Part shown: one piece after another, positions 5,162 through 42,268 of the stretch | Numbering within the stretch: the stretch's first letter is position 1 | Layout of the letters: the number at the start of each line of letters is the position of its first letter | Virus record (IMG/VR): IMGVR_UViG_3300040801_005514 | Span: 1 to 42,406 of that record | Direction: 5' to 3' (one strand) | DNA from: a virus | DNA length: 42,406 bases | Notes under the pieces: generated by a model | Told to the model about the DNA's origin: nothing | What the model saw: only the letters and a program-made list of their open reading frames with translations | Database searches by the model: none | Program-made: the position numbers and the translations under genes

Positions 5162-5743
5162 CTAAATTAATATGCTGTAAAAACCACCACTACTATCAGT
5201 TAACGTAGCAAATCCTTCAGCATCAGGATCATTAGCAAATCCAAAATATTCTACTGGACTTATAATAAGTAAATCGGAAAGTTTTATTGTACTTTCTAAC
5301 GCTCTTACAATAGCATTCCTAAGTTCTGTTCCTGATATTGTGGTAAAATCTGTCTGTATATCAACACCAATAGCCCTTGGTGGTTGCTCTATTAATCTGA
5401 TACTTATAGCTTGGGTAAGTAGACTGATTATCTGTAGTATCTGATCAGGTTTGCCCGAACTTGTATACGAGAGTATCTGTGCAAGAATCTTATCGCGGAA
5501 GGTAGTATCGCCCAACCCTCCTCGCTCCACATCAAAATTAAAGCCCCATCGATCTAAAGTTTGTCCAGTAGCATTTTGGAGAGGAAGCAATAAATAAAAA
5601 TCTTGTGTAGCTTCTTCTATTTTTTGAATCTCAATCATTGCGCCTTGGATAAGATCTTTTACATCTGATTCTTTGTATTGCGTAATGAAGTCAGCATTAG
5701 CTTGTTGTTCATAATCTGTAATTTTTATTGGTCTTATGGGCAT
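5162..5743 (-). CDS. Baseplate wedge / fibre-adaptor protein (P2 gpI or DUF2612-like position)
   Basis: 193 aa directly after the Baseplate-J-like gene, as in Mu/P2-type baseplates. SD AGAGGTG. The call rests on synteny. Confidence 0.45.
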   Translation of the reverse strand: MPIRPIKITDYEQQANADFITQYKESDVKDLIQGAMIEIQKIEEATQDFYLLLPLQNATGQTLDRWGFNFDVERGGLGDTTFRDKILAQILSYTSSGKPDQILQIISLLTQAISIRLIEQPPRAIGVDIQTDFTTISGTELRNAIVRALESTIKLSDLLIISPVEYFGFANDPDAEGFATLTDSSGGFYSILI

Positions 5744-8299: not shown

Positions 8300-9145
8300 C
8301 TATCTCTCTAATGTTTCTATTACGCTGTAAAAAGTACCTTGTTGAGAATCGCCTTGATGAGACACTTTTGATATCACATAATCTCCTGAAGCTATTTCTT
8401 GTGTGTTTTGTATGCGAATTTCTTGTTTTGGGCTTAATTTTGGATTAAGAAGTGTTGTGAAATTAACTCCTTTTCTTATTTTACCATCTTTTGTTTTCTC
8501 TTCAGTTATGGAGGGTGAGTTAATGAGTCCACTTGTAGGGGTGATAATGAATATCTCATTAGTAATTGGCTGAAAAGCTTTTGTGAGTGTTATCTCATTG
8601 TTTTGCACCGAAAAATCCACCCCATCACCTAAAACTTTTTTTAATATCTCTGAAGATGAGCCACTAAAACTTCCACCAGTTACCATCTCTTTTGCATCAT
8701 CGACAATGTCTTGTGGAAGACTTTTATTATCAAGATTTTTAAAAGAACTAAGCAGATCTTGAATAACAGTAGTTACTTTTGTTCCTTTTTTATAGCTTTT
8801 ATTAAATTCGGTATTCTGTAGATCCAACACACCATCACCGGACTCAATAGTTGTTATCCATTCTGTAGGACTTTTCTTATTTTCTATTTTATCAACATCA
8901 CCAGAAAAAATGATTTGAGTCTCGTCTCCATATCCTGCTTCGATAGTCAAAAAAAGATCTGTTTTTTCTTCTAAGTTTGACCTAGAATTAGGAGATAAAT
9001 TATAAATTACTAAAGTAGCTCTGTTCGGATTTTTTTCAGTAGTTTTTTCTACTTGAAATTGTATTCGTAAATTAGTAATCTGTATACGTGTACCAGTCCT
9101 CTCACCCACGGTTACTATTACTTTTCTATCAAATTGAAAAGCCAC
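8300..9145 (-). CDS. Baseplate hub protein (gpD/XkdQ-like), GTG start
   Basis: N-terminal pattern LRIQFQVEKTTEKNPNRATLVIYNLS is typical of hub/late-control-D-like proteins. The start codon is GTG (plus-strand cac at 9143-9145) and overlaps the upstream TAG by 1 nt. Confidence 0.5.
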   Translation of the reverse strand: MAFQFDRKVIVTVGERTGTRIQITNLRIQFQVEKTTEKNPNRATLVIYNLSPNSRSNLEEKTDLFLTIEAGYGDETQIIFSGDVDKIENKKSPTEWITTIESGDGVLDLQNTEFNKSYKKGTKVTTVIQDLLSSFKNLDNKSLPQDIVDDAKEMVTGGSFSGSSSEILKKVLGDGVDFSVQNNEITLTKAFQPITNEIFIITPTSGLINSPSITEEKTKDGKIRKGVNFTTLLNPKLSPKQEIRIQNTQEIASGDYVISKVSHQGDSQQGTFYSVIETLER

Positions 9146-10093: not shown

Positions 10094-11908
10094 TTAGTCA
10101 GAAAAAATAGGCTCATTATTTCTAGCAACTGTTTGTCCTATTTTTGTTATTTCTTTATTTATCAAATCAGCGATATTCTCTGCTTGATTGGCTCCTCCTA
10201 CAGATGCCCCACTCATAGTTATATTTATAGTTGGAGAAATCATTGTTTGGTTAGCACTGCTTTGATTATTAAATGTACTTGCATTGTTACTTATTGCCGG
10301 AGACTGAGAAATTGTTTGGCCCACATCCGCAAACGTCTGAGGTATGTTCTGCACAGGTGTGTCTTCTTTGGAAATGACTCCAGTAAATTTCAAAACATCA
10401 CCTACAAAAGAGTCACTGATAGTATCTTTTAGAGAATTAAAAGTATTTACAGCCAGATCTTTTAAACTTATAAGTCCTCTAGAAATAATACCAAAAGCAA
10501 CTTTCCAAGAGTCGGTGAAAGGACTGAATATATTACCAAGCAAGGTCATCCACTCGTCAAAAGCAGCAAAAAGCTCTCCGCGTAAAATAGCAGCTATTGT
10601 AGAAAATATAGAAGATACTAAGTTACTGAAAGTATTAAATGCATTGGATATAGCTTCTATCACAAAAATAAACATATCCCTGTACCAAGTGATAAAAGAT
10701 TGAGTAGTATCTCTACTGATACCAAAAAACTCAAGTACAAAAAACAATACCCCTTTCAAAAAGTCTTGGATACCTTGCATGATTTGTTCTTTGTTCTCTA
10801 AAAGATACCCAAGGAAAGAAGGCTTCCCGTCCATGAAAGCAAATAAGTCATCTATAATTAATACTAATGCAGCAACAGCAATTCCTATTAAAATAGGTAT
10901 CGCCATAGCTGCTATGTTCGTGAGTATGATTGCATTTCTCATTAGCATGAAGCCTTTTACAATCTGCATAATCCCCATAGCTAAAGAACCGGCTTGGTAC
11001 AAAAGAAACAAAGCGCCTAAAGTCTTCAGCACTGGAACCAGGCCGCCAACATTGCTAGTGAGAAAAGAAATAATTCTTGCTAAATGAGAAAAAGCAGTAC
11101 CCGCGATGTCCACAGTAGTAATCAGTCCTGAGACAAAATTACTAAGTCCTGTCTTAATAAGGTCTTGATTAGCTATAATAAGCTGTTTAAAGCTAGCTAA
11201 TAATTCAGTCATGACAGGGAATAACTTAGCACCAATTGTATTTTTTATTCCTGTAAAAGTTCCTAAAAGAGAATCTAAAGCGTCGTTGAAATTCGAGCCT
11301 GCGGCTATACTAGCATCATCCATTATCATGCCAAGATTTTCAGCCTCTGCTCCCATCGCTTCAATACCTGCCCGGCCTGCATTAAGCATAGGAATAAGTC
11401 TAGGTCCTGCCTCAGGACCGATAGCACGCATAGCGAGTTCTGTCTTTTTTATTCCGTCTGGCATCTTAGAAAAAACATCAGCAAGATCTAATAGGATTTC
11501 ATTAGAGTTTTTAAGACTTCCATCAGTGTTCTTAACCTCGATACCCATTGACGCGTAAACTTCTTGAGCCTCTTTATTGCCTTGGTTTAAAAGCTTTACT
11601 CTATCTGTAATTCTCGTTAATCCGATCGTCAAAAGTTGAAAATCACCACCCGACAGTTGGGATGCATAGGCAAGTTTTTGCAACTCGTCTCTAGCAACAC
11701 CTAGTCGCATTGAAGTGTCATCTATTTTATCAGCGTAATCAGCTGCGCTTTTTGTCGCTCCAAACATGGCTGCAGAGATACCAACAATAGCAGCGCCAAG
11801 GACAAGTGCGCTTTTCTTTGTTTTTTCTAGCCCTTGATCAAGGCTATCGAGCGCTTTATCATCTACTTGTACGCCTACTTTAACTAAAAGCTCTCTCAGG
11901 GTGGCCAT
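10094..11908 (-). CDS. Tail tape measure protein
   Basis: 604 aa between the chaperone and baseplate genes. N-terminal helical region (AADYADKIDDTSMRLGVARDELQKLAYASQLSG) and long hydrophobic central segments. Confidence 0.8.
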   Translation of the reverse strand: MATLRELLVKVGVQVDDKALDSLDQGLEKTKKSALVLGAAIVGISAAMFGATKSAADYADKIDDTSMRLGVARDELQKLAYASQLSGGDFQLLTIGLTRITDRVKLLNQGNKEAQEVYASMGIEVKNTDGSLKNSNEILLDLADVFSKMPDGIKKTELAMRAIGPEAGPRLIPMLNAGRAGIEAMGAEAENLGMIMDDASIAAGSNFNDALDSLLGTFTGIKNTIGAKLFPVMTELLASFKQLIIANQDLIKTGLSNFVSGLITTVDIAGTAFSHLARIISFLTSNVGGLVPVLKTLGALFLLYQAGSLAMGIMQIVKGFMLMRNAIILTNIAAMAIPILIGIAVAALVLIIDDLFAFMDGKPSFLGYLLENKEQIMQGIQDFLKGVLFFVLEFFGISRDTTQSFITWYRDMFIFVIEAISNAFNTFSNLVSSIFSTIAAILRGELFAAFDEWMTLLGNIFSPFTDSWKVAFGIISRGLISLKDLAVNTFNSLKDTISDSFVGDVLKFTGVISKEDTPVQNIPQTFADVGQTISQSPAISNNASTFNNQSSANQTMISPTINITMSGASVGGANQAENIADLINKEITKIGQTVARNNEPIFSD

Positions 11909-23891: not shown

Positions 23892-24431
23892 TCATAAAAT
23901 AAAATCCTCTATTTCTTTATTTTTTTTGATTTTTAATTTATTTTCCAGCTCTTTAATACGTAAAATACGCTCTTCTTTATCCATCTCATCAAAAGTTTTT
24001 CTGTCGTCCTCGATAATCTGCTTAGATGTTTCTGTCCATCCTTCCATAGACTTAAAGTAAGCAAGTATGAGTTGCGGATTACCTTTGCCCGTCGGTTTAA
24101 GTAGGCCATCCTCATCTCGCCTCATAGGAAAAGCTTGCTCCATGAAGCAAGTGTGTGCTCTAGTTCTAAGTTTTGTGATCCCTCTATTCCATGCCTCCCT
24201 AAGACGTGTATATCGATCTAGCCAGGTAAGGAAGGTTGGTGGATTAACCCCTATCGCCTCAGCTGTTTGCCTTTCGGTAAACCCCATTGACGCGTAAACC
24301 TCTGCTTTGTTTACACAATCTTCATCACAAGATGATTTGCCGAAAGGCTTTTCCTTTGACGTGTACAAATTCCTATCAGAATTATACTCTCGATACTTAC
24401 CTGTACGAAAGCTTTGCTTTTTCTTAACCAT
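23892..24431 (-). CDS. terS: Terminase small subunit (HTH)
   Basis: Position upstream of terL. HTH-like MGFTERQTAEAIGVNPPTFLTWL. I prefer the ATG at 24431 (9 nt after GGAGA) over 24440. Confidence 0.5.
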   Translation of the reverse strand: MVKKKQSFRTGKYREYNSDRNLYTSKEKPFGKSSCDEDCVNKAEVYASMGFTERQTAEAIGVNPPTFLTWLDRYTRLREAWNRGITKLRTRAHTCFMEQAFPMRRDEDGLLKPTGKGNPQLILAYFKSMEGWTETSKQIIEDDRKTFDEMDKEERILRIKELENKLKIKKNKEIEDFIL

Positions 24432-24493
24432 GACAAACATTCTCCTTCATGATATAAAAACTTAATTACCTTTATAATACTTGATATGTTTTT

Positions 24494-26464: not shown

Positions 26465-27109
26465 TCATTCTCCTTTTAATACTAATTCTGAGAAATAGGG
26501 TAGTCGTAAAACCCACTCGCAAAGTAGCTTCCATTCTAGACGTTTATGATTTTTTCTTTGATGATATATAGTCTTTAGCGTCATATAATTAATCTTCACA
26601 GCGAGTGTCAATGTGCACTCTGGAAGAGCGGATATAGCTCTCTGAAAAGCAAATTCATCTTCAAGATGGTCTCTATAGTGTTTTATTGCTTTATACGCTC
26701 TCGTAAGCTCTTGTGTGGAAGCTCCTAAACACCAGTTCTTCAATTGATCAGACAGCTCGTCCTCAGGTGTCTCTTGTACAAGTGCCATGGTGCTTTGTGA
26801 CGATACCACTTCTATATGGTGATACCTTAGAAGTTGCTGTATCCACGACTGAGCCGCGGTGATATAGCAGTGTATTGTGGGGCCTTTAAGCCAACAATCG
26901 TATCCTGATCCAGCTGGTGCTTGTCCTAATCTAAGCGCTCTTAATATATCAGTATGTGCTATTTCCTGCTCAGTATCTATTTTTCCTATATATTTAGGTA
27001 ACTTAGAAGCAAAAATACTATGCTGCATTCCTGCTAAGGATAATCCTAAGATGCTGAAATTGAAATAATCATTTCCATATTGTATTTCTGGTAAGTCAAT
27101 TATTTTCAT
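26465..27109 (-). CDS. ThyX-fold-like protein with a degenerate active-site motif
   Basis: ITAAQSWIQQLLRYHHIEVVSSQS compared with the ThyX RHRxxSxxxxSxRY block, and the C-terminal LPECTLT...HQRKNHKRLEWKLL compared with the ThyX LP...R...aq.Ei block. The catalytic Arg and Tyr positions are replaced. Confidence 0.35.
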   Translation of the reverse strand: MKIIDLPEIQYGNDYFNFSILGLSLAGMQHSIFASKLPKYIGKIDTEQEIAHTDILRALRLGQAPAGSGYDCWLKGPTIHCYITAAQSWIQQLLRYHHIEVVSSQSTMALVQETPEDELSDQLKNWCLGASTQELTRAYKAIKHYRDHLEDEFAFQRAISALPECTLTLAVKINYMTLKTIYHQRKNHKRLEWKLLCEWVLRLPYFSELVLKGE

Positions 27110-27136
27110 ACACTTTTTCCTTTAATATGTTGTATA

Positions 27137-27161
27137 CATGTACAACCCGCTACTTGTACAG
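27137..27161. promoter_or_regulatory. Two further TGTACA cores (O2 27155-27160 in cttgtacag; O3 27139-27144 in catgtacaac) between the -10 and the SD
   Basis: Read directly. Centre-to-centre spacings from O1 are 24 and 40 bp. Confidence 0.45.
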
Positions 27162-27166
27162 CTTTT

Positions 27167-27195
27167 AATATACACACTTGTACAAGTGGAGTAAA
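27167..27195 (-). promoter_or_regulatory. Sigma70-like promoter TTTACT-17 nt-TATATT for the ThyX-like/YefM-like operon
   Basis: The minus strand reads atgTTTACTccacttgtacaagtgtgTATATTaaaagc, about 50 nt upstream of SD AAGGA and the ATG at 27109. Confidence 0.5.
27175..27188. promoter_or_regulatory. Perfect 14-bp palindrome CACTTGTACAAGTG (operator O1) filling the promoter spacer
   Basis: Self-complementary on inspection, with a TGTACA core at 27179-27184. Confidence 0.6.
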
Positions 27196-27346
27196 CATAA
27201 AAAATATTGAAGAAAAAAATAAACTCTTTATTAATATTTTAAAAAAATGTTAAAGTTTCTCTTTAGTGTTCCTATTGATACAATAGAGGGAGAGAAGAAA
27301 GCTTAATAGGGTTAACCCACAAAGAGGCCTCCAGGGATATATCGCT

Positions 27347-27388
27347 CCTAACCTAACCTAACCTAACCTAACCTAACCTAACCTAACC
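27347..27388. repeat. Pentanucleotide microsatellite (CCTAA)8CC, which is (TTAGG)n on the other strand
   Basis: Eight perfect tandem units counted, flanked by the palindromes GGGTTAACCC (27309-27318), GAGGCCTC (27324-27331) and CTCGAG (27392-27397). Confidence 0.95.
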
Positions 27389-27769
27389 AGCCTCGAGAGG
27401 TATTTTTAATGCCTTCTTTTTACCCCCTTCAAGTAAAATCAATAACTTAACTAAAAATAGTCGTTTAAATCGATTCTAAGACCAACTTCTTATACAATAC
27501 GAGTCTTAGTATAGGTTTTAGGCTAAACATACCTTAGAATAGATTCTACGGACTCTCAGAGGGTGTTTATCCGCTGTAGCTCCTCCCAATATTATTAGCC
27601 AAGGATTGAGAGATTATTCTTGTCGACCGAGATTTTGATCCTGTCTGCTCACTCGTCAGCCTGGTCAAGGAATGTTGTTTTTGGCTCAAATATAATTTTT
27701 TCTCATACCAATTTGATATTATTTATAAAATTAAGATTAGAAGGTCAAAACAATAGGATTTGAGGTCAG

Positions 27770-28080
27770 AGTTTAGAAAATAATTTCTAAACTTTTCTAA
27801 ACTTTCTAAACCCAAAAATACCTGTAACCTTATGATATAATTGGAGAGTTTAGAAAGTTTAGAAAGTTTAGGGTGCACATAGGGGTAGCGGTTACCCCCT
27901 ATCGAAATAAATAAATTAATAAACATATATGTATTGTAATACGTATTATTAGGGAGGGGGAGGGGGCCATATACCCATACCCGGGGGTCTGATCTAAACT
28001 TTCTAAACTTTCTAAACTCCTGAATGATATCAAGGGTTTAAAGAGTTTAAACGGTTTAAAAAAGTTTAGAAAGTTTAGAA
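27770..28080. repeat. Iteron arrays (core GTTTAGAA/GTTTAAA, 9-10 bp period); putative replication origin
   Basis: One forward copy at 27771-27778. Three reverse copies at 27784-27811. Three forward at 27848-27873. Three reverse at 27992-28018. Five forward at 28036-28080. The core at 27874-27990 holds a GC hairpin, an AT-rich stretch with the palindromes ACATATATGT and TAATACGTATTA, and G-tracts. A T10 run follows at 28085-28094. Confidence 0.6.
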
Positions 28081-28156
28081 ATGGTTTTTTTTTTAAAATT
28101 TTGTGAATTTCACAAATTTTAGTACAATTTTTTGTTAAGAATAGATTTTTTTATAT

Positions 28157-30742
28157 TTATTGTTTTTTTCTCAAAATCTCGTGCCCTGAGCTGGAATATT
28201 CGATCACGAACTCCTCGGAAAATTCTGATCGGATATAATTTAAGAAATTATCCTTGAGGCGGATCTCCTTGAAAGCATGAACAGGTCCTTTCATGTGGGC
28301 CCAAGACACATCATGGTGCTTGGCTAGCTGCCTTGTAATTTTCTTCCGCACTTTTTCTCTCATCGAAGATTCGCTTTTCTCCTGGTAGGTGATATCGTCC
28401 CTGCCACCAACATGTTTTTCACTCTGGATGATCCAAGAATTAAAGACCTCGCTCACCAATTCCTTGGCCGTTTTGACACTCTGGAAGGAAACGGTCTCGG
28501 GCGTTTGAGTCTGGTATCGATCTTCGCACAGCTCAATGAGGGCTGAGAGTTTGATCACATGAAGCCTCTTTCGTTTAGTAAAATCATCTTCTGACTGCTC
28601 CTTGTATGCCTCCTCTAGCGCCCTAAAAGAGTCCTCGGCCCCCTTGCTATCTAGGACCAGTTTCTGAGGCTGGTACGGGTCTGTTTCGTTAATGAGCCTT
28701 TTAAGAGTTTCCTGCTCCTTTTTAACCTCCTCGGCTTTTTTCTTCTTAGGTGAAGTGCCCTCTCCCAGAGTGATGAGCTCATATGATGGATTGCCGTCCT
28801 CGGCAATGCCGCATGGGTATTGTCTCTCATAGTACACTTTCCTTGGCTCATCTCTTCCTCTGTTCATGAGCTTCTTGAGTTGAGGAAGATCCCTTTGACA
28901 AAATGTATCAAGGATAGTTTCATAAATTTGTGACTCATCGTCTCCCTGACAGAAGTACTCTTCACTTAGCTCCTTTTCTTTTTGTTTTGCTCTCTGCTCA
29001 GCGATATAGAAAAGGGGTCTGTTCCCTATACCCTGGACAGCGTCGATGTTCCTGATGAACTCGTCTGAAAACTCATCGAAAGCCGAAGCGAAGAAAAGGG
29101 ACTCATACGTGTTGTAGAGTGTGCCCTCGTTTTCTGTTTTTGACACCCAGCCGGTTAACTCTCCATCATATAGCTTCGTGTGTGCTTTCTTAAGGGAGGC
29201 ATCCATGGAACCTGTACCTTTTTTAAGGAGGAAACCTCCCTCCGATTTTATCTCGTCGATAAGAAGTACAAAATCTCTTGATATCTTCTTACCTGACACT
29301 TGCCTGAACAAACCTATTGTCGACTTTGCTTCGTCAAGTTTCATGATGCCTAGCTCTTTAATCATCCGATTATAAACGTCGAAAAATATCTGTTTACCTG
29401 ATCCAGAACAGGCAAATATGCCTGTAAAAGTGTTTAACGATGCGGCCCCCTTATGCTTTAACACTTTAAAGGAGTACTCGTACTGTAGGGCTGCGGAGAC
29501 TATAGAGGTGGCTACAAGAAAGCCTGCAATAGGATGAGTGTTATCTTCGTAGAGCGTGTTTACTACTTTTGCAAGCCTAAAAAGAAGGTTTGTTTTTTCT
29601 TTTTCCTTGAGGATTTTTTGAACTTTCTTATCTATAGTATCAACTTTTTCTTTTAAAGAAATGTCCTTTTCATTTTCTTGTTCTTCCATGAAGGGTAGGT
29701 TTGAAAGTTGCTCCTCTGTCTCTATTCGCCACTCCTCTTGTACAAGTACCGTCTTCCTTATTTTTGTAGCTAGCGTCCCCCCTGATCGAGGTGAGTGGAG
29801 ACTATACCAGGTACTTCTACATTCCTCTTCATCCTCATAGTCGGGCATGAGTTTAGATAAGGTATGGAAGATGGTGAACTGTTTTTCCTCATCCACATCT
29901 AGTTTATGTGTCAGATATCCTAGCTGCAACCAAGCATTCCTACAGCAACCACTTTGCCATTTATTACCTACAGAAAGTGTATCCATGAACTCATCTAGTT
30001 TCTTTTGCGCCGTAGCATCTATCGCTTCCCCATCTCTAGTAGTGGCCCGTTCTATAGCTTGTGGGATGATTTTTTGAAAAGTGTGATAATCGTCTATAGT
30101 CTCCGTCTTAACTTGTACATGTTTTCTGTCTGGAGCTTGTTTCAAAGAAGACCAAAGTTCCTCAAAATCTTTAGGTAAGGAAGCTAGTATAATTTCGCCA
30201 GGTCCTCTTCCATCATCCCACTCGTGTCTTGCTTTAAGATCTTTTCCAAGGGCAGGAGGGCAGAAAAGGAGTCTCCTGTTTCCTTCTTGATTGGCTAGCA
30301 GATCAATTCCATGGAAAGCATTTATGTGCGTTCTCAGTTTTTTTTTAGTTTTAAAATATAAATGTTTTCCGCCTGAGGCCGTAGTTTCTGCAATGGTTTG
30401 TACATGAAGAAGCTCTGGGAACTTTTCTTGAATCGTTTTGAGTCCATTTTTATTCTTTTTCACATCTACATCAATAACGACTATATAATCTGCTCTATAC
30501 TTACTTTTCCCAATGAGTAGTGTAGGAATGAGCTCGTCTATAGAATCAAGTTTTTTAAAACTCTCTCTGCTAAACTCTTCATCCCACTCTTCTGCTCTAC
30601 CTAAAGGACGTCTGATGACTTCATTTTTTGCGCAGTATACTAGCTTGGATCTGATGATGGGTAACCCCCATTCTTGAGCAAACATATACGTCTTCTCTAG
30701 ATCTTTTTTGAACCTAGTTTCTTCAAATTCAAAATCTTCCAT
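28157..30742 (-). CDS. Replicase: N-terminal Prim-Pol (bifunctional primase/polymerase) fused to a P-loop NTPase (DUF3987/D5-like helicase)
   Basis: Prim-Pol motifs YIVVIDVDV, SGGKHLYF and HGIDLLANQ...FCPPA. Walker A ACSGSGKQ and Walker B VLLIDEIK in the C-terminal half. Confidence 0.65.
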   Translation of the reverse strand: MEDFEFEETRFKKDLEKTYMFAQEWGLPIIRSKLVYCAKNEVIRRPLGRAEEWDEEFSRESFKKLDSIDELIPTLLIGKSKYRADYIVVIDVDVKKNKNGLKTIQEKFPELLHVQTIAETTASGGKHLYFKTKKKLRTHINAFHGIDLLANQEGNRRLLFCPPALGKDLKARHEWDDGRGPGEIILASLPKDFEELWSSLKQAPDRKHVQVKTETIDDYHTFQKIIPQAIERATTRDGEAIDATAQKKLDEFMDTLSVGNKWQSGCCRNAWLQLGYLTHKLDVDEEKQFTIFHTLSKLMPDYEDEEECRSTWYSLHSPRSGGTLATKIRKTVLVQEEWRIETEEQLSNLPFMEEQENEKDISLKEKVDTIDKKVQKILKEKEKTNLLFRLAKVVNTLYEDNTHPIAGFLVATSIVSAALQYEYSFKVLKHKGAASLNTFTGIFACSGSGKQIFFDVYNRMIKELGIMKLDEAKSTIGLFRQVSGKKISRDFVLLIDEIKSEGGFLLKKGTGSMDASLKKAHTKLYDGELTGWVSKTENEGTLYNTYESLFFASAFDEFSDEFIRNIDAVQGIGNRPLFYIAEQRAKQKEKELSEEYFCQGDDESQIYETILDTFCQRDLPQLKKLMNRGRDEPRKVYYERQYPCGIAEDGNPSYELITLGEGTSPKKKKAEEVKKEQETLKRLINETDPYQPQKLVLDSKGAEDSFRALEEAYKEQSEDDFTKRKRLHVIKLSALIELCEDRYQTQTPETVSFQSVKTAKELVSEVFNSWIIQSEKHVGGRDDITYQEKSESSMREKVRKKITRQLAKHHDVSWAHMKGPVHAFKEIRLKDNFLNYIRSEFSEEFVIEYSSSGHEILRKKQ

Positions 30743-30762: not shown

Positions 30763-31203
30763 TTAATCTTTTAAGTTTAGTAGCTCATCTATGTATATTC
30801 CTTGGTCTTTATATACTCTTGAAAGCCGCTCCCTTTCACTTCTCAGTAGATCATTGTCGCCGCGAATATAAGAGAGAAGAATTGAGCTGTCTATAAGATC
30901 TTGAGCGGTGATATAACCATCAGTTAACCTATGCAGGTTTTGTGCTACAGTAGCACTAACAGAGTAATTTCTTGCTTTCATTACGGAAAAGCTTCTCCAT
31001 TCAAGCCCTATTTTGTTAGCGATGTCACTGTTTGTTATGTAAGAATACCATTTCCCATTGTGCCATGTCGCCCTTGGGAACATAATATCGTGTATTTTTT
31101 TAGCTATAATACAAGGTTGGTGTAGGGAAGCTATCCTTTTCCCCTTCTCCTTCTGTGGCAATCCCTTGGTTAATTTCCTGTATAGTTGTTCTTGTGTTAG
31201 CAT
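30763..31203 (-). CDS. Putative HTH transcriptional regulator (XRE-like)
   Basis: NSDIANKIGLEWRSFSVMKARNYSVSATVAQNLHRL resembles an XRE HTH. ATG at 31203 with AGGAGA 9 nt upstream (the track start at 31212 is TTG). It is the first gene left of the divergent control region. Confidence 0.4.
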   Translation of the reverse strand: MLTQEQLYRKLTKGLPQKEKGKRIASLHQPCIIAKKIHDIMFPRATWHNGKWYSYITNSDIANKIGLEWRSFSVMKARNYSVSATVAQNLHRLTDGYITAQDLIDSSILLSYIRGDNDLLRSERERLSRVYKDQGIYIDELLNLKD

Positions 31204-31235
31204 CTTATTCAATCTCCTATTTTTTTTTTAAAAAT

Positions 31236-39145: not shown

Positions 39146-41020
39146 TTATGGAGAAATTAAGTCTTTAAAATCAGATACTTGGATATCTGGAACGGTAAAT
39201 GAAATGCTATCACTACCACCCCCAAACGTATTAATAAGTTTTCTTCTTTTAGAAAAAGCAGCCCTGTATTGCTGACTTGTATTAGTATACGATGATGATC
39301 TTGGAAGAGTCGCTTCCCAATAACCATTTTCATCAGTAAGTACCTCGCAATCCTCAAAAATAGAAATATTATTACTAAGTAAAAGCTCTGTGTCTTCTCG
39401 CTGTAGAGACAGTGTTACTTTCACTCCTTCAGAAGGAGTATTACACGTGTCACGTATATATCCATAAACCAGACAGAGATTAGGATTGTCCGGAAGACCT
39501 GCGAAGTCATACGTTAATGTAAGATAAGTAGCTATCAAATCATCATTGTACTCTGTAACTTCAATCCTACCAAACAGCTTTACAGTAGCGGCCTGTGTAA
39601 GGAGTGATGCGGCGTTACTGTTAATTTCTTCCAAGGTACTTAGCTGTGGAAAGCTACCATCACTCACAATCCATGAAGAACCGTCCCAGTACTGCTTAAC
39701 ATTATCAATAATAATTGCATATTTTATTTCTGCTGCACCAGTTCTAGTAAGCTCTTCTTGTAAATTGATAATTTCTTGAGCATTTACAAATTCCACTGTC
39801 TCAAAGGAACCACTTCTTATTTTTGTTTTTTGGCTATAGGGTATACTTAGATTGGTTATTGCTGTCTGATTCAAACCTTCTGGCAAGATGATACTTATAG
39901 TGACTTCCTGCTCATCCTCCACAATAAAAGTAGGAAGTCCTTCATTTATACCACCGAGAGTAGATGCTTGGCTATACGTGCCGTTGCTCATGAGCCAAGC
40001 AGATCCGTTATAATATAGTCCATCTACTAAATACTTAGGACTCTCAGAAACTACTGTTTGAAAAGCCGTCAGCTCCTTTATTGCACTTAAAACATCAGGC
40101 ACACTAAACGTTTTATCGCTTTTACTTTCTTCATATCTAATGGCTCCGAAAGCGCTGGTAGGCGTGTAATCAACATCCGTATTCCTTAGCGCTTCACTCC
40201 AAAAAGCAACGTCTGTACAAGTGAAGTCGCCTGCCGTGTTCAAACTACCGCGATTAAATAATTGAAGAACATCTAGCCTATCATCAATAGTTGGTAATGT
40301 GTGGTTAAACGCTCCTGAATATATATTCACCCCGTCAACAAAGATCAATAAAACAGATGTGTTAACGCTATCATCAAAACGATGTTCCCAGTTAATCTCA
40401 ATCTCATATTCAACTCCAAGGCTCATAAAGAAATTAATGTTAGGATTAAAGAACAACGTATTATTTATTCGTATAGCACTTTTGAATGCGCTTACGCTAC
40501 TGTCGTAGAAAAAACTAAAAAAAGTAGACGTATCGTCACTTGAGCCAATTGTGAATAGTTGTTGTATAGTGTCTGGAAGTGTGCCGTTGCGCGTCAATCG
40601 CGCTCTAAAAGTAAAAGCTTGGCTTGGACCTAAAGCAAGTTCCTGGCCTGCAGCGGGAAGTACTGTTATACCGTCATTAATAGTGTTGGCTGTCCACGCC
40701 CCACCCACAATAGCTCCACCGTCAAGCGTTACACTATCAACACTTGTATCTTGATGCCGAGGAGTGGTACTTCCGTCTACCCCAAAATCAAAGTGAATCA
40801 TTAAGTTGTCTGTTGGAATATCTTTTTGTTTTAGTTGTTCATCTTCAAAGATAATTTTATTATTATCATACAACCATCCGGTATCAGATGAAAAGTCGTC
40901 ACTAAAAGGTGCTGCGATGCTTTCATTAATAACTAATTGTATAGTATTACCTGATATTTCTGTATTACTTAATATAAAATTAGAAATATTATCAAACGTG
41001 AATACTTTTTGCTCACTCAT
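39146..41020 (-). CDS. LamG/concanavalin-like domain tail fibre or receptor-binding protein
   Basis: The N-terminal third (DGSTTPRHQD...GGAWTANTINDGITV...FTFRARLTRNG...FFSFFYD) looks like a LamG jelly-roll. I prefer the ATG at 41020 (SD GGAGGAG). The track start at 41089 runs through the terminator hairpin. Confidence 0.5.
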   Translation of the reverse strand: MSEQKVFTFDNISNFILSNTEISGNTIQLVINESIAAPFSDDFSSDTGWLYDNNKIIFEDEQLKQKDIPTDNLMIHFDFGVDGSTTPRHQDTSVDSVTLDGGAIVGGAWTANTINDGITVLPAAGQELALGPSQAFTFRARLTRNGTLPDTIQQLFTIGSSDDTSTFFSFFYDSSVSAFKSAIRINNTLFFNPNINFFMSLGVEYEIEINWEHRFDDSVNTSVLLIFVDGVNIYSGAFNHTLPTIDDRLDVLQLFNRGSLNTAGDFTCTDVAFWSEALRNTDVDYTPTSAFGAIRYEESKSDKTFSVPDVLSAIKELTAFQTVVSESPKYLVDGLYYNGSAWLMSNGTYSQASTLGGINEGLPTFIVEDEQEVTISIILPEGLNQTAITNLSIPYSQKTKIRSGSFETVEFVNAQEIINLQEELTRTGAAEIKYAIIIDNVKQYWDGSSWIVSDGSFPQLSTLEEINSNAASLLTQAATVKLFGRIEVTEYNDDLIATYLTLTYDFAGLPDNPNLCLVYGYIRDTCNTPSEGVKVTLSLQREDTELLLSNNISIFEDCEVLTDENGYWEATLPRSSSYTNTSQQYRAAFSKRRKLINTFGGGSDSISFTVPDIQVSDFKDLISP

Positions 41021-41034
41021 AAAATATCTCCTCC

Positions 41035-41077
41035 ATAAAAAATAACCACTGCTAAAACTATTATAGCAGTGGTTATT
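41035..41077 (-). terminator. Rho-independent terminator after the endolysin gene
   Basis: Perfect 13-bp stem aataaccactgct / agcagtggttatt (41041-41053 / 41065-41077) with an 11-nt loop. The minus strand continues TTTTAT directly into GGAGGAG. Confidence 0.65.
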
Positions 41078-41107
41078 ATCTTTGAACAATTATTAATTAT
41101 ATATTTG

Positions 41108-42268
41108 CTAAAAATTCTTATTTATCCAAGAATTTAAATCGTCTGCAGTTCTCCAAATATGGCCCGGGCAACTGGTTGCCTTCACTTCATAATGACCAAG
41201 GATATTCTCTCTGGGTATATTATATTTTCTCATCCAATATTTAATCAGCTGTATTGTTGTATCCTCTTGCCAAGCAGTCATACCTTTCAAGCCTCCTCCA
41301 GCAACAATCTCAATACCCAAAGACTTGTGATTATACATACTAACACCTGCGTGCCATGCTGCATACTTCTCCCAAACAGGAATGCAGATTTCTCCAGCTT
41401 TACCAGAGAAAGGAACTGAGTCTTGAGGATTCCTTGGAATGATTGCATGTGCTGATACTTTAGAATTCTTATTGATAAACCAATAAACAGGAGAAGAGAA
41501 AGTTGAGGTGTCTGTGTTATGTAATACAATATGTGTTATTTTAGCTCTACGAGTTGACTTGTGGGGTGATAATCTTTTAAACCAGGGTGGATGAATAGGC
41601 TCAGTCATAATAGGATTCTCCTTTTCTTCATACTTTAAGCCAAGAAAAGATGCTGCTTCAGCAAACAACTTTGATACCTTCTCAACATATCTCGGATCTG
41701 CTGCAAAACCTGATGAATGAAGGAAAATGATAAAATCCTTAGCTCCTTTCCTCTCTTGCCAGCCTCTATAGATAGGCCTATTTATGAATTTAATATAGGC
41801 TGCATAAAATGAAGTAGGAAGACTACAACCAAGATAATTAGTTGTTATATTATCACTAGAAGATGTATATTCTACTGGATAGAAACGAGCATCATCATCG
41901 AATATGTTACGCCACATAAGCCCCGCAAAGTTGTTGTGCTCTTTAGCTAGCTCTGAATGCCCTCTTCCAGTCTCAACCATGGATTGAGCTACCATTGCTA
42001 TCTTCTGTCCATCGCTCAATGCACTACTTTTCTTAATTAAATACCAGTACTTTTGTATATTTTTATGGTACTTTTCGTTAAAAATAATATCTTTTTCCTT
42101 GGATGGTTTTTCTTGTTCTTCTTTTTCCTCAGGAACTTCAATTTCTTCAGGTATTTTAGGTTCTTCTGGTTTAACGCCTTCTATCGCTTTAATAATAGCT
42201 TTGATAGAATCTATTATGATAGGCAAGTAGCGAATTATAGCTCCAATATCTTTAATAAATCGAAACAT
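41108..42268 (-). CDS. Bifunctional endolysin: N-acetylglucosaminidase (GH73-like) plus N-acetylmuramoyl-L-alanine amidase (Amidase_2/PGRP)
   Basis: GH73: MVETGRGHSELAKEHNNFAGLMW and FAADPRYVEKV. Amidase_2: ITHIVLHNTDT, VSAHAII, AWHAG, SLGIEIV, ILGHYEVKATSCPG. The N-terminus is amphipathic (IIRYLPIIIDSIKAIIKAI) followed by a Pro/Glu-rich linker. Confidence 0.8.
   Translation of the reverse strand: MFRFIKDIGAIIRYLPIIIDSIKAIIKAIEGVKPEEPKIPEEIEVPEEKEEQEKPSKEKDIIFNEKYHKNIQKYWYLIKKSSALSDGQKIAMVAQSMVETGRGHSELAKEHNNFAGLMWRNIFDDDARFYPVEYTSSSDNITTNYLGCSLPTSFYAAYIKFINRPIYRGWQERKGAKDFIIFLHSSGFAADPRYVEKVSKLFAEAASFLGLKYEEKENPIMTEPIHPPWFKRLSPHKSTRRAKITHIVLHNTDTSTFSSPVYWFINKNSKVSAHAIIPRNPQDSVPFSGKAGEICIPVWEKYAAWHAGVSMYNHKSLGIEIVAGGGLKGMTAWQEDTTIQLIKYWMRKYNIPRENILGHYEVKATSCPGHIWRTADDLNSWINKNF

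Follow-up and report, generated by a model that had tools for sequence, protein, structure and literature searches.

A putative bidirectional replication origin with opposed hexanucleotide iterons behind the primase-helicase gene of an uncultured lytic phage

In SaPI replicons the origin (ori) lies directly downstream of rep, a gene whose product in SaPI5 is fused to the primase (PMC9371898). Such origins consist of 6-12 penta- or hexanucleotide iterons in two groups with an AT-rich region between them, and in each group at least two iterons are oppositely oriented; they are served by a hexameric, self-loading Rep whose C-terminal winged helix reads the iterons (PMC9371898). Further sources for this replicon are Ubeda et al. 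2007 and 2012, as cited in PMC9371898 and bioRxiv 10.64898/2026.10.17.759575. According to a 2026 cryo-EM preprint on SaPI5 (bioRxiv 10.64898/2026.10.17.759575), an AA between successive TGCAACC iterons sets the register at 9 bp; consecutive iterons are occupied by three or four C-terminal domains, while one domain swings out to an inverted iteron; and the AT-rich DNA that separates inverted iterons, 15-17 bp long, is the first to distort. The Sfi21-type origin of Streptococcus thermophilus phages is, according to the account of Foley et al. 1998 given in PMC6356513, a 302-bp non-coding element of the replication module that confers phage-encoded resistance.

The 42,406 bp of the window analyzed here make up a complete viral record, and the repeat shared by the contig ends implies a circular assembly. 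To judge from gene order and repeat arrangement, the SaPI pri-rep-ori replicon, and above all SaPI5 PriRep5 with its ori, is the known system closest to the iteron element of the window. As in SaPI5, the element follows a fused primase/P-loop gene, spans about 300 bp, is built in a 9-bp register and has a spacer of about 17 bp between the inverted iterons on its primase side; as in SaPIs in general, it contains two sets of short, opposed iterons around a central AT-rich region; and as in PriRep5, the primase is fused to a P-loop ATPase followed by a C-terminal winged helix, which in the window is predicted. Unlike a SaPI, the window is no satellite island and represents a complete lytic phage, which has structural genes and encodes a family A polymerase of its own. 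It also has 15 iterons instead of 6-12, an AT tract clamped by G/C runs, a 14-mer conserved in the core and an extra small conserved gene upstream. The replicon of the window thus appears SaPI-like in its working, yet it is no SaPI or PICI.

The alpha protein of satellite phage P4 is a primase-helicase with a Toprim-type primase and a C-terminal origin-binding domain that reads octamer or nonamer iterons, and P4 needs two separated cis sites, ori and crr, the latter several kb from ori. The window resembles P4 in having one multifunctional primase-helicase and short iterons that this protein would bind, and differs from it in having a single iteron cluster in its genome and a Prim-Pol (AEP) domain in place of the Toprim type. 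Inverted short elements flanking an AT-rich segment, as in the window, are also a feature of the origins recognized by papillomavirus E1, SV40 large T antigen and, at herpesvirus oriS, UL9, where two helicase complexes unwind the DNA bidirectionally; unlike the window, these systems belong to eukaryotic viruses, use a different DNA-binding domain and lack a fused primase. The iterons of lambda-type origins measure about 19 bp and are contained in the initiator gene, whereas the element of the window is intergenic and has 9-bp units. With the Sfi21-type origin, as far as it is described in the account named above, the window shares a short, non-coding and origin-like element that belongs to the replication module of a phage with a Gram-positive host (a suggested one, for the window), but the two show no sequence similarity (blastn, 50,697 phage records) and belong with different initiator families.

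Genome setting and the putative initiator

On the minus strand of the window, structural, packaging and lysis genes fill two stretches, 45 to about 24,440 and 39,146-42,268. Beyond the first of these come small genes, the last of which ends at 27,109, and a gene-free gap of 1,047 bp (27,110-28,156) separates them from the gene for the 861-aa putative initiator (Table 1). Past the 149-aa gene that lies directly upstream of the latter, a divergent plus-strand block encodes a family A DNA polymerase, a PD-(D/E)XK nuclease and an SNF2 helicase. The amidase/glucosaminidase endolysin and the Shine-Dalgarno-like leaders of the genes suggest a Gram-positive host. No tRNA genes were found. GC skew showed no turn at the element and turned near 31.3 kb, in the divergent promoter region; because the skew follows the direction of transcription, it is uninformative on the origin.

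The gene content bears on one possible function of the arrays, that of a centromere-like partition site in a plasmid-like prophage state. Opposed repeat arrays are typical of parS and parC sites, but the genome encodes capsid, portal, terminase, tail, lysis and polymerase functions, as expected of a lytic phage with its own polymerase, and no integrase, ParA/ParB partition pair or protelomerase was detected among the window genes scanned. We consider a partition role scarcely conceivable.

The 861-aa protein is annotated as a DNA primase in PHROGs. Prim-Pol was matched by five of the six family members and PriCT-2 by the window protein, and a Walker A motif (SGSGK around residue 447) and a Walker B motif (LLIDE around residue 494) were located, of which G449, K450 and E497 are invariant across the family. 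Membership in SF3, SF6 or another helicase superfamily is not established: no helicase structure matched the ATPase region by sequence or fold, and the match of the protein to Pfam DUF3987 lay below the cut-off of that family. The AlphaFold model is confident for the N-terminal 345 residues and for the last ~70, with pLDDT below 50 in the ATPase region. A fold search with the full-length model returned only weak matches to AEP primases (RepB', the LigD polymerase domain and S-2L PrimPol) and nothing for the ATPase region, and no sequence similarity to solved Rep structures was detectable.

The C-terminal segment, residues 792-861, is predicted with pLDDT values of 86-92 to form three helices and a beta hairpin. 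Nearly all of its Foldseek matches were winged-helix domains, including those of LOTUS, forkhead, histone H1, Z-alpha, PadR and Cdt1 proteins, with TM-scores on the target of 0.5-0.68 and E-values of 0.3-1.6, which are not significant. This segment is our candidate for the iteron reader.

An exhaustive HMMER search of 1.84 billion representative proteins yielded five full-length relatives of the initiator, with 30-43% identity, and one 291-aa fragment. Relatives were found only by exhaustive HMMER and alignment-based scans: nothing close to the region or to the protein was present among 50,697 phage records searched with blastn and tblastn, and nothing close was returned by two word-index protein searches, by a prokaryote genome scan or by pattern scans for which the window protein, P0003, P0004 and P0006 served as seeds. 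Downstream DNA was available for only two of the relatives, so that the comparison covers three loci: the window, a 49-kb viral contig (L032; 41% identity of the protein) and an 8.7-kb metagenome contig (L034; 36% identity). The small gene, the primase-helicase gene and a gene-free region follow one another in this order in all three.

Iteron arrays and core in the window and its relatives

Fifteen iteron units, each of 9 bp (GTTTAG plus an A-rich linker), were found between 27771 and 28081, the first of them 76 bp past the stop codon of the 861-aa gene. They form four period-9 arrays of alternating orientation, on which direct reading, a repeat finder, Tandem Repeats Finder and a script agree. 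Eight units lie on the primase side of the core and seven on the far side, so opposed that five plus-strand iterons face three minus-strand ones on the former, and three face three, plus one extra, on the latter. The first-pass annotation had described about 15 iterons in alternating arrays directly downstream of the replicase gene, around a core with a hairpin, an AT-rich stretch, two palindromes and G-tracts, and with a T10 run; this description was borne out in full, each of the core and flanking signals being found where it had been placed.

Table 1. Coordinates of the element, its internal signals and the adjoining genes in the window.
Feature	Position	Strand	Description
Solitary outermost iteron GTTTAGAAA	27771-27779	+	Palindrome with the first minus copy at 27784-27792
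Outer array, far side from primase gene	27784-27811	-	3 exact iterons, steps of 10 and 9 bp
Spacer between opposed arrays, far side	27812-27847	.	36 bp
Extended -10-like box TGATATAAT	27833-27841	+	In the 36-bp spacer, directed toward the core
Inner array, far side	27848-27874	+	3 iterons, 9-bp period
Core	27875-27990	.	116 bp
GC hairpin GGGGTA-GCGGT-TACCCC	27882-27898		In core
AT-rich tract	27900-27948		Presumed unwinding element, ~48 bp, 85% A+T
14-mer TTAATTTATTTATT	27906-27919	-	Once in the window genome
Palindrome ACATATATGT	27923-27932		Within AT-rich tract
Palindrome TAATACGTATTA	27937-27948		Within AT-rich tract
G tract	27952-27966		In core
C/G runs	27974-27987		In core
Inner array, primase side	27991-28017	-	3 iterons, 9-bp period
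Spacer between opposed arrays, primase side	28018-28035	.	About 17 bp
Extended -10-like box TGATATCAT	28024-28032	-	In the ~17-bp spacer, directed toward the core
Outer array, primase side	28036-28081	+	5 iterons: three GTTTAAA-type, then two GTTTAGAAA; one 10-bp step
T10 run	28085-28094		Between arrays and primase stop codon
17-nt palindrome TTTGTGAA-T-TTCACAAA	28100-28116		Between first array and primase stop codon
861-aa putative initiator gene	28157-30742	-	Prim-Pol (AEP) primase, PriCT-2, P-loop ATPase, C-terminal domain
Predicted winged-helix domain	28160-28369	-	Residues 792-861, candidate iteron reader
149-aa gene	30763-31212	-	Directly upstream of primase-helicase gene; alternative iteron reader or loader

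All ten exact copies of GTTTAGAAA in the genome (42.4 kb, both strands) fall within these 311 bp (27771-28081), and copies with one mismatch outside the region are at background level (32 in total versus 27 +/- 4.6 expected). The core-adjacent copy of the far-side inner array is reduced to its first six bases (GTTTAGGGT), and that of the primase-side inner array is degenerate (GTTTAGATC). As these core-adjacent copies keep only GTTTAG, the recognition unit would be the hexamer, followed by a 3-nt A-rich linker. The element as a whole is a long imperfect inverted repeat, with arms at 27777-27871 and 27994-28088 that are 75% complementary, and as single-stranded DNA it folds far better than shuffled sequences (z = -9) because the arrays are opposed. 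The hairpins formed by the arrays also account for the only output of an Rfam search of the region, which consisted of sub-threshold miRNA-like matches.

A coding origin of the 9-bp repeats, as three-codon units, was rejected, since the arrays run in both directions and two of the steps are 10 bp; the minus-strand open reading frames that overlap the arrays (27723-27926 and 27899-28033) are without counterpart in the relatives, which also argues against it. Matches to an exact 18-mer of two iterons occurred in 29 viral contigs, in every case by chance or through unrelated tandem repeats. Examples are an unrelated viral contig (L031, 7060-7200), which carries a different 9-bp tandem, of CTTTGTAAC and CTTTCTAAA units containing the same 9-mer, and a giant-virus contig (L003, 1407-1451) with five tandem copies of GTTTAGAAA. 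Both are look-alikes only, with no related primase nearby.

In each of the three loci the element comes right after the primase-helicase gene. Read from the stop codon in the direction of that gene, the window has five minus iterons, a 17-bp spacer, three plus, the core, three minus, a 36-bp spacer, three plus and one minus. L034 has five minus, a 26-bp spacer, three plus, the core, three minus, a 38-bp spacer and four minus, and L032 has about three degenerate plus, three plus, the core, three minus and degenerate minus copies. The 5-3-core-3 array counts are therefore identical in the window and L034; L034 has opposed iterons on the primase side only, and in all three loci three inner repeats with a 9-bp period converge on the core from each side. 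Repeat density within the element exceeds that in the rest of the locus 40-fold in L034 and 12-fold in L032. The repeat itself changes, from GTTTAG in the window to GTTTAC in L032 and GGTATA in L034, so that three homologous initiators (36-43% identity) go with three different hexamers in one layout, within a small sample.

The core also keeps its order, with a C-run, an AT-rich tract and a G-run in all three loci. TTAATTTATTTATT, by far the longest word that they share, has a single copy in each locus, which lies in the core and points the same way with respect to the gene; nowhere else in the 764 kb of DNA compared was it found. The pattern of C-run, 14-mer and G-run was found in only one of 2.9 million viral contigs other than the record of the window, and that contig was L032. 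The AT tract of the window, bounded on both sides by G/C runs, is among the eight least stable non-overlapping 40-bp windows of the genome, without being the least stable.

Conserved position, layout and core together with a changing repeat match the prediction for an origin with an initiator-specific reader, and would not be expected of chance repeats. On these grounds the element is probably the bidirectional replication origin of the phage, of the self-loading primase-helicase type. The origin interpretation of the first-pass annotation is thereby strengthened, as far as comparative sequence evidence goes, by an array/core/array structure behind a homologous gene in two distant relatives that differ in the repeats and keep the core motif. 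Two of its other remarks needed revision: the mirror-image pairs of arrays that it called unusual are not so, opposed iterons being known in SaPI origins, and the theta plasmids that it took as precedent fit less well than the SaPI/PICI pri-rep-ori replicon and phage primase-helicase origins.

The G/C runs of the core lend themselves to a different interpretation, in which the small terminase binds the arrays and cuts the GC-rich part of the core as a pac or cos site. Arrays flank a cleavage core in SPP1 pacL/pacC/pacR and in lambda cosB, and GC-rich runs stand out in an AT-rich genome. The element, however, adjoins the primase-helicase gene in all three loci, whereas 3.3 kb with about nine genes separate it from the small terminase gene (23892-24440), and its repeat sequence varies between relatives of the replication protein. 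Moreover, the large terminase matches the T4-type N-terminal domain, and terminases of this type usually package by headful, with no elaborate site. A packaging site is, in our estimate, highly improbable.

Promoter-like signals within the element were also considered. Extended -10-like boxes lie in both spacers (at 27833 on the plus and 28024 on the minus strand) and converge on the core, and three of the 17 such boxes of the genome fall in the 461 bp inspected (27700-28160). In L032, two of three boxes are inside the element (TGTTATTAT), again both pointing at the core. A scan with consensus promoters and terminators showed no enrichment over shuffled sequences. The boxes, and the place of the region between the replication genes and the next operon, could mean that the arrays are repressor or activator operators flanking two convergent spacer promoters, whose short transcripts would regulate neighbor genes or a module switch. 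In L034, however, the arrays are kept nonetheless in an element that contains no extended -10-like box. In the window, the stretch from either box to the core contains no gene, and about 600 bp away are a promoter and TGTACA operators that belong to the next operon itself (the TGTACA palindromes are at 27130-27190). Furthermore, promoters inside origins are a known feature of T7, T4 and lambda, so that the boxes are compatible with an origin. Transcription control as the function of the arrays is thus very unlikely.

Between the arrays and the primase stop codon, the T10 run and the 17-nt palindrome (Table 1) may form a terminator, perhaps a weak one, of the primase operon. The equivalent place in L032 (8598-8640) has a clearer hairpin followed by T8.

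Iteron reading and a possible course of initiation

If the element is the origin, as we favor, the protein that reads its iterons would most simply be the primase-helicase itself, which carries the predicted C-terminal winged helix. The identity of this domain to its counterparts in the two relatives is 39% and 32%, compared with 42% and 41% for residues 690-791 directly before it; the winged helix is no more variable than the rest of the protein, and the co-variation with the iterons is not localised to it.

The small gene upstream offers another reader. It is kept at the same place in all three loci (window 30763-31212, minus strand; L032 5550-5984; L034 1737-2201), and its products of 144-154 aa are only 22-27% identical, with an invariant GYI motif. 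According to this proposal the element is still an origin, but the iterons are read by the small protein, which acts like lambda O as an initiator or loader that recruits the primase-helicase. Its conserved position would agree with this, as would its divergence, which is greater than that of the primase-helicase and is expected of a specificity determinant, and the middle segment of the protein looks like a helix-turn-helix on reading by eye. DNA binding, on the other hand, receives no backing from family, profile or solved-structure searches, none of which gave a match. Between the window and L032 the iterons differ by one base, but it is these two loci whose small proteins resemble each other least (no BLAST match at E <= 1). 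In view of this, and of the winged helix in the primase-helicase, we regard a reading role of the small protein as unlikely.

For an origin read by the primase-helicase, initiation could take the following course. The 861-aa Prim-Pol/P-loop protein would be produced early and dock through its C-terminal winged-helix domains on the hexanucleotide iterons with their A-rich linkers. Each pair of opposed arrays would take one assembly, on either side of the core; the duplex would open in the spacers, in the ~48-bp AT-rich tract or in both; and the fused primase would lay down primers to be extended by the family A DNA polymerase of the phage. By calculation, a 9-bp register turns successive sites by about -51 degrees, compared with 60 degrees between the subunits of a hexamer ring, and the closeness of these two steps is a possible reason for the 9-bp register shared with SaPI5.

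A more elaborate version combines self-loading of the helicase with activation by transcription. Each array pair would dock one hexamer, which would place three of its C-terminal domains on the inner array and the others on the outer one. Opening would be aided by transcription that starts at the extended -10 boxes of the two spacers and converges, an R-loop would be held in place by the G runs past the AT tract, and the fused Prim-Pol primase would start at the conserved 14-mer. In this full form the proposal is distinctly unlikely.

Taken as the probable origin, the element would be a candidate replication start for a very divergent lineage of uncultured phages, and it would bring a complete lytic phage, whose initiator has a fused Prim-Pol, under the SaPI-type grammar of an origin after the gene, opposed hexamers in a 9-bp register and a reader at the C-terminus. 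The match of the 5-3-core-3 counts at 36% initiator identity, together with the register in common with SaPI5, would constrain models of how a hexamer with flexible DNA-binding domains engages an origin. Once the host is known, the fragment could be used as a decoy that titrates replication proteins, in the manner of phage-encoded resistance, or as a cloning origin.

Several other observations concern the DNA beyond the arrays. In L032, a little downstream of the origin (10355-11799), a gene for a ParB_N-domain protein overlaps one for a D12-class adenine methyltransferase, a pair without counterpart among the window genes scanned. In L034, a cluster of GTACA/TGTACA-type words (5590-5735) precedes the first gene after the origin, whose product had no Phd/YefM match in Pfam. 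Finally, about 300 nt past the iterons the three loci have another conserved, collinear block, in the window at 27470-27487 (minus strand, within a GC-richer stretch), in L032 at about 9071-9086 and in L034 at about 5532-5549. Its fullest form, TTGCGTGCTTAGAATCGA, is that of L034, with one 11-mer common to the window and L034 and another common to L032 and L034, and the block may represent a conserved RNA or a second cis site.
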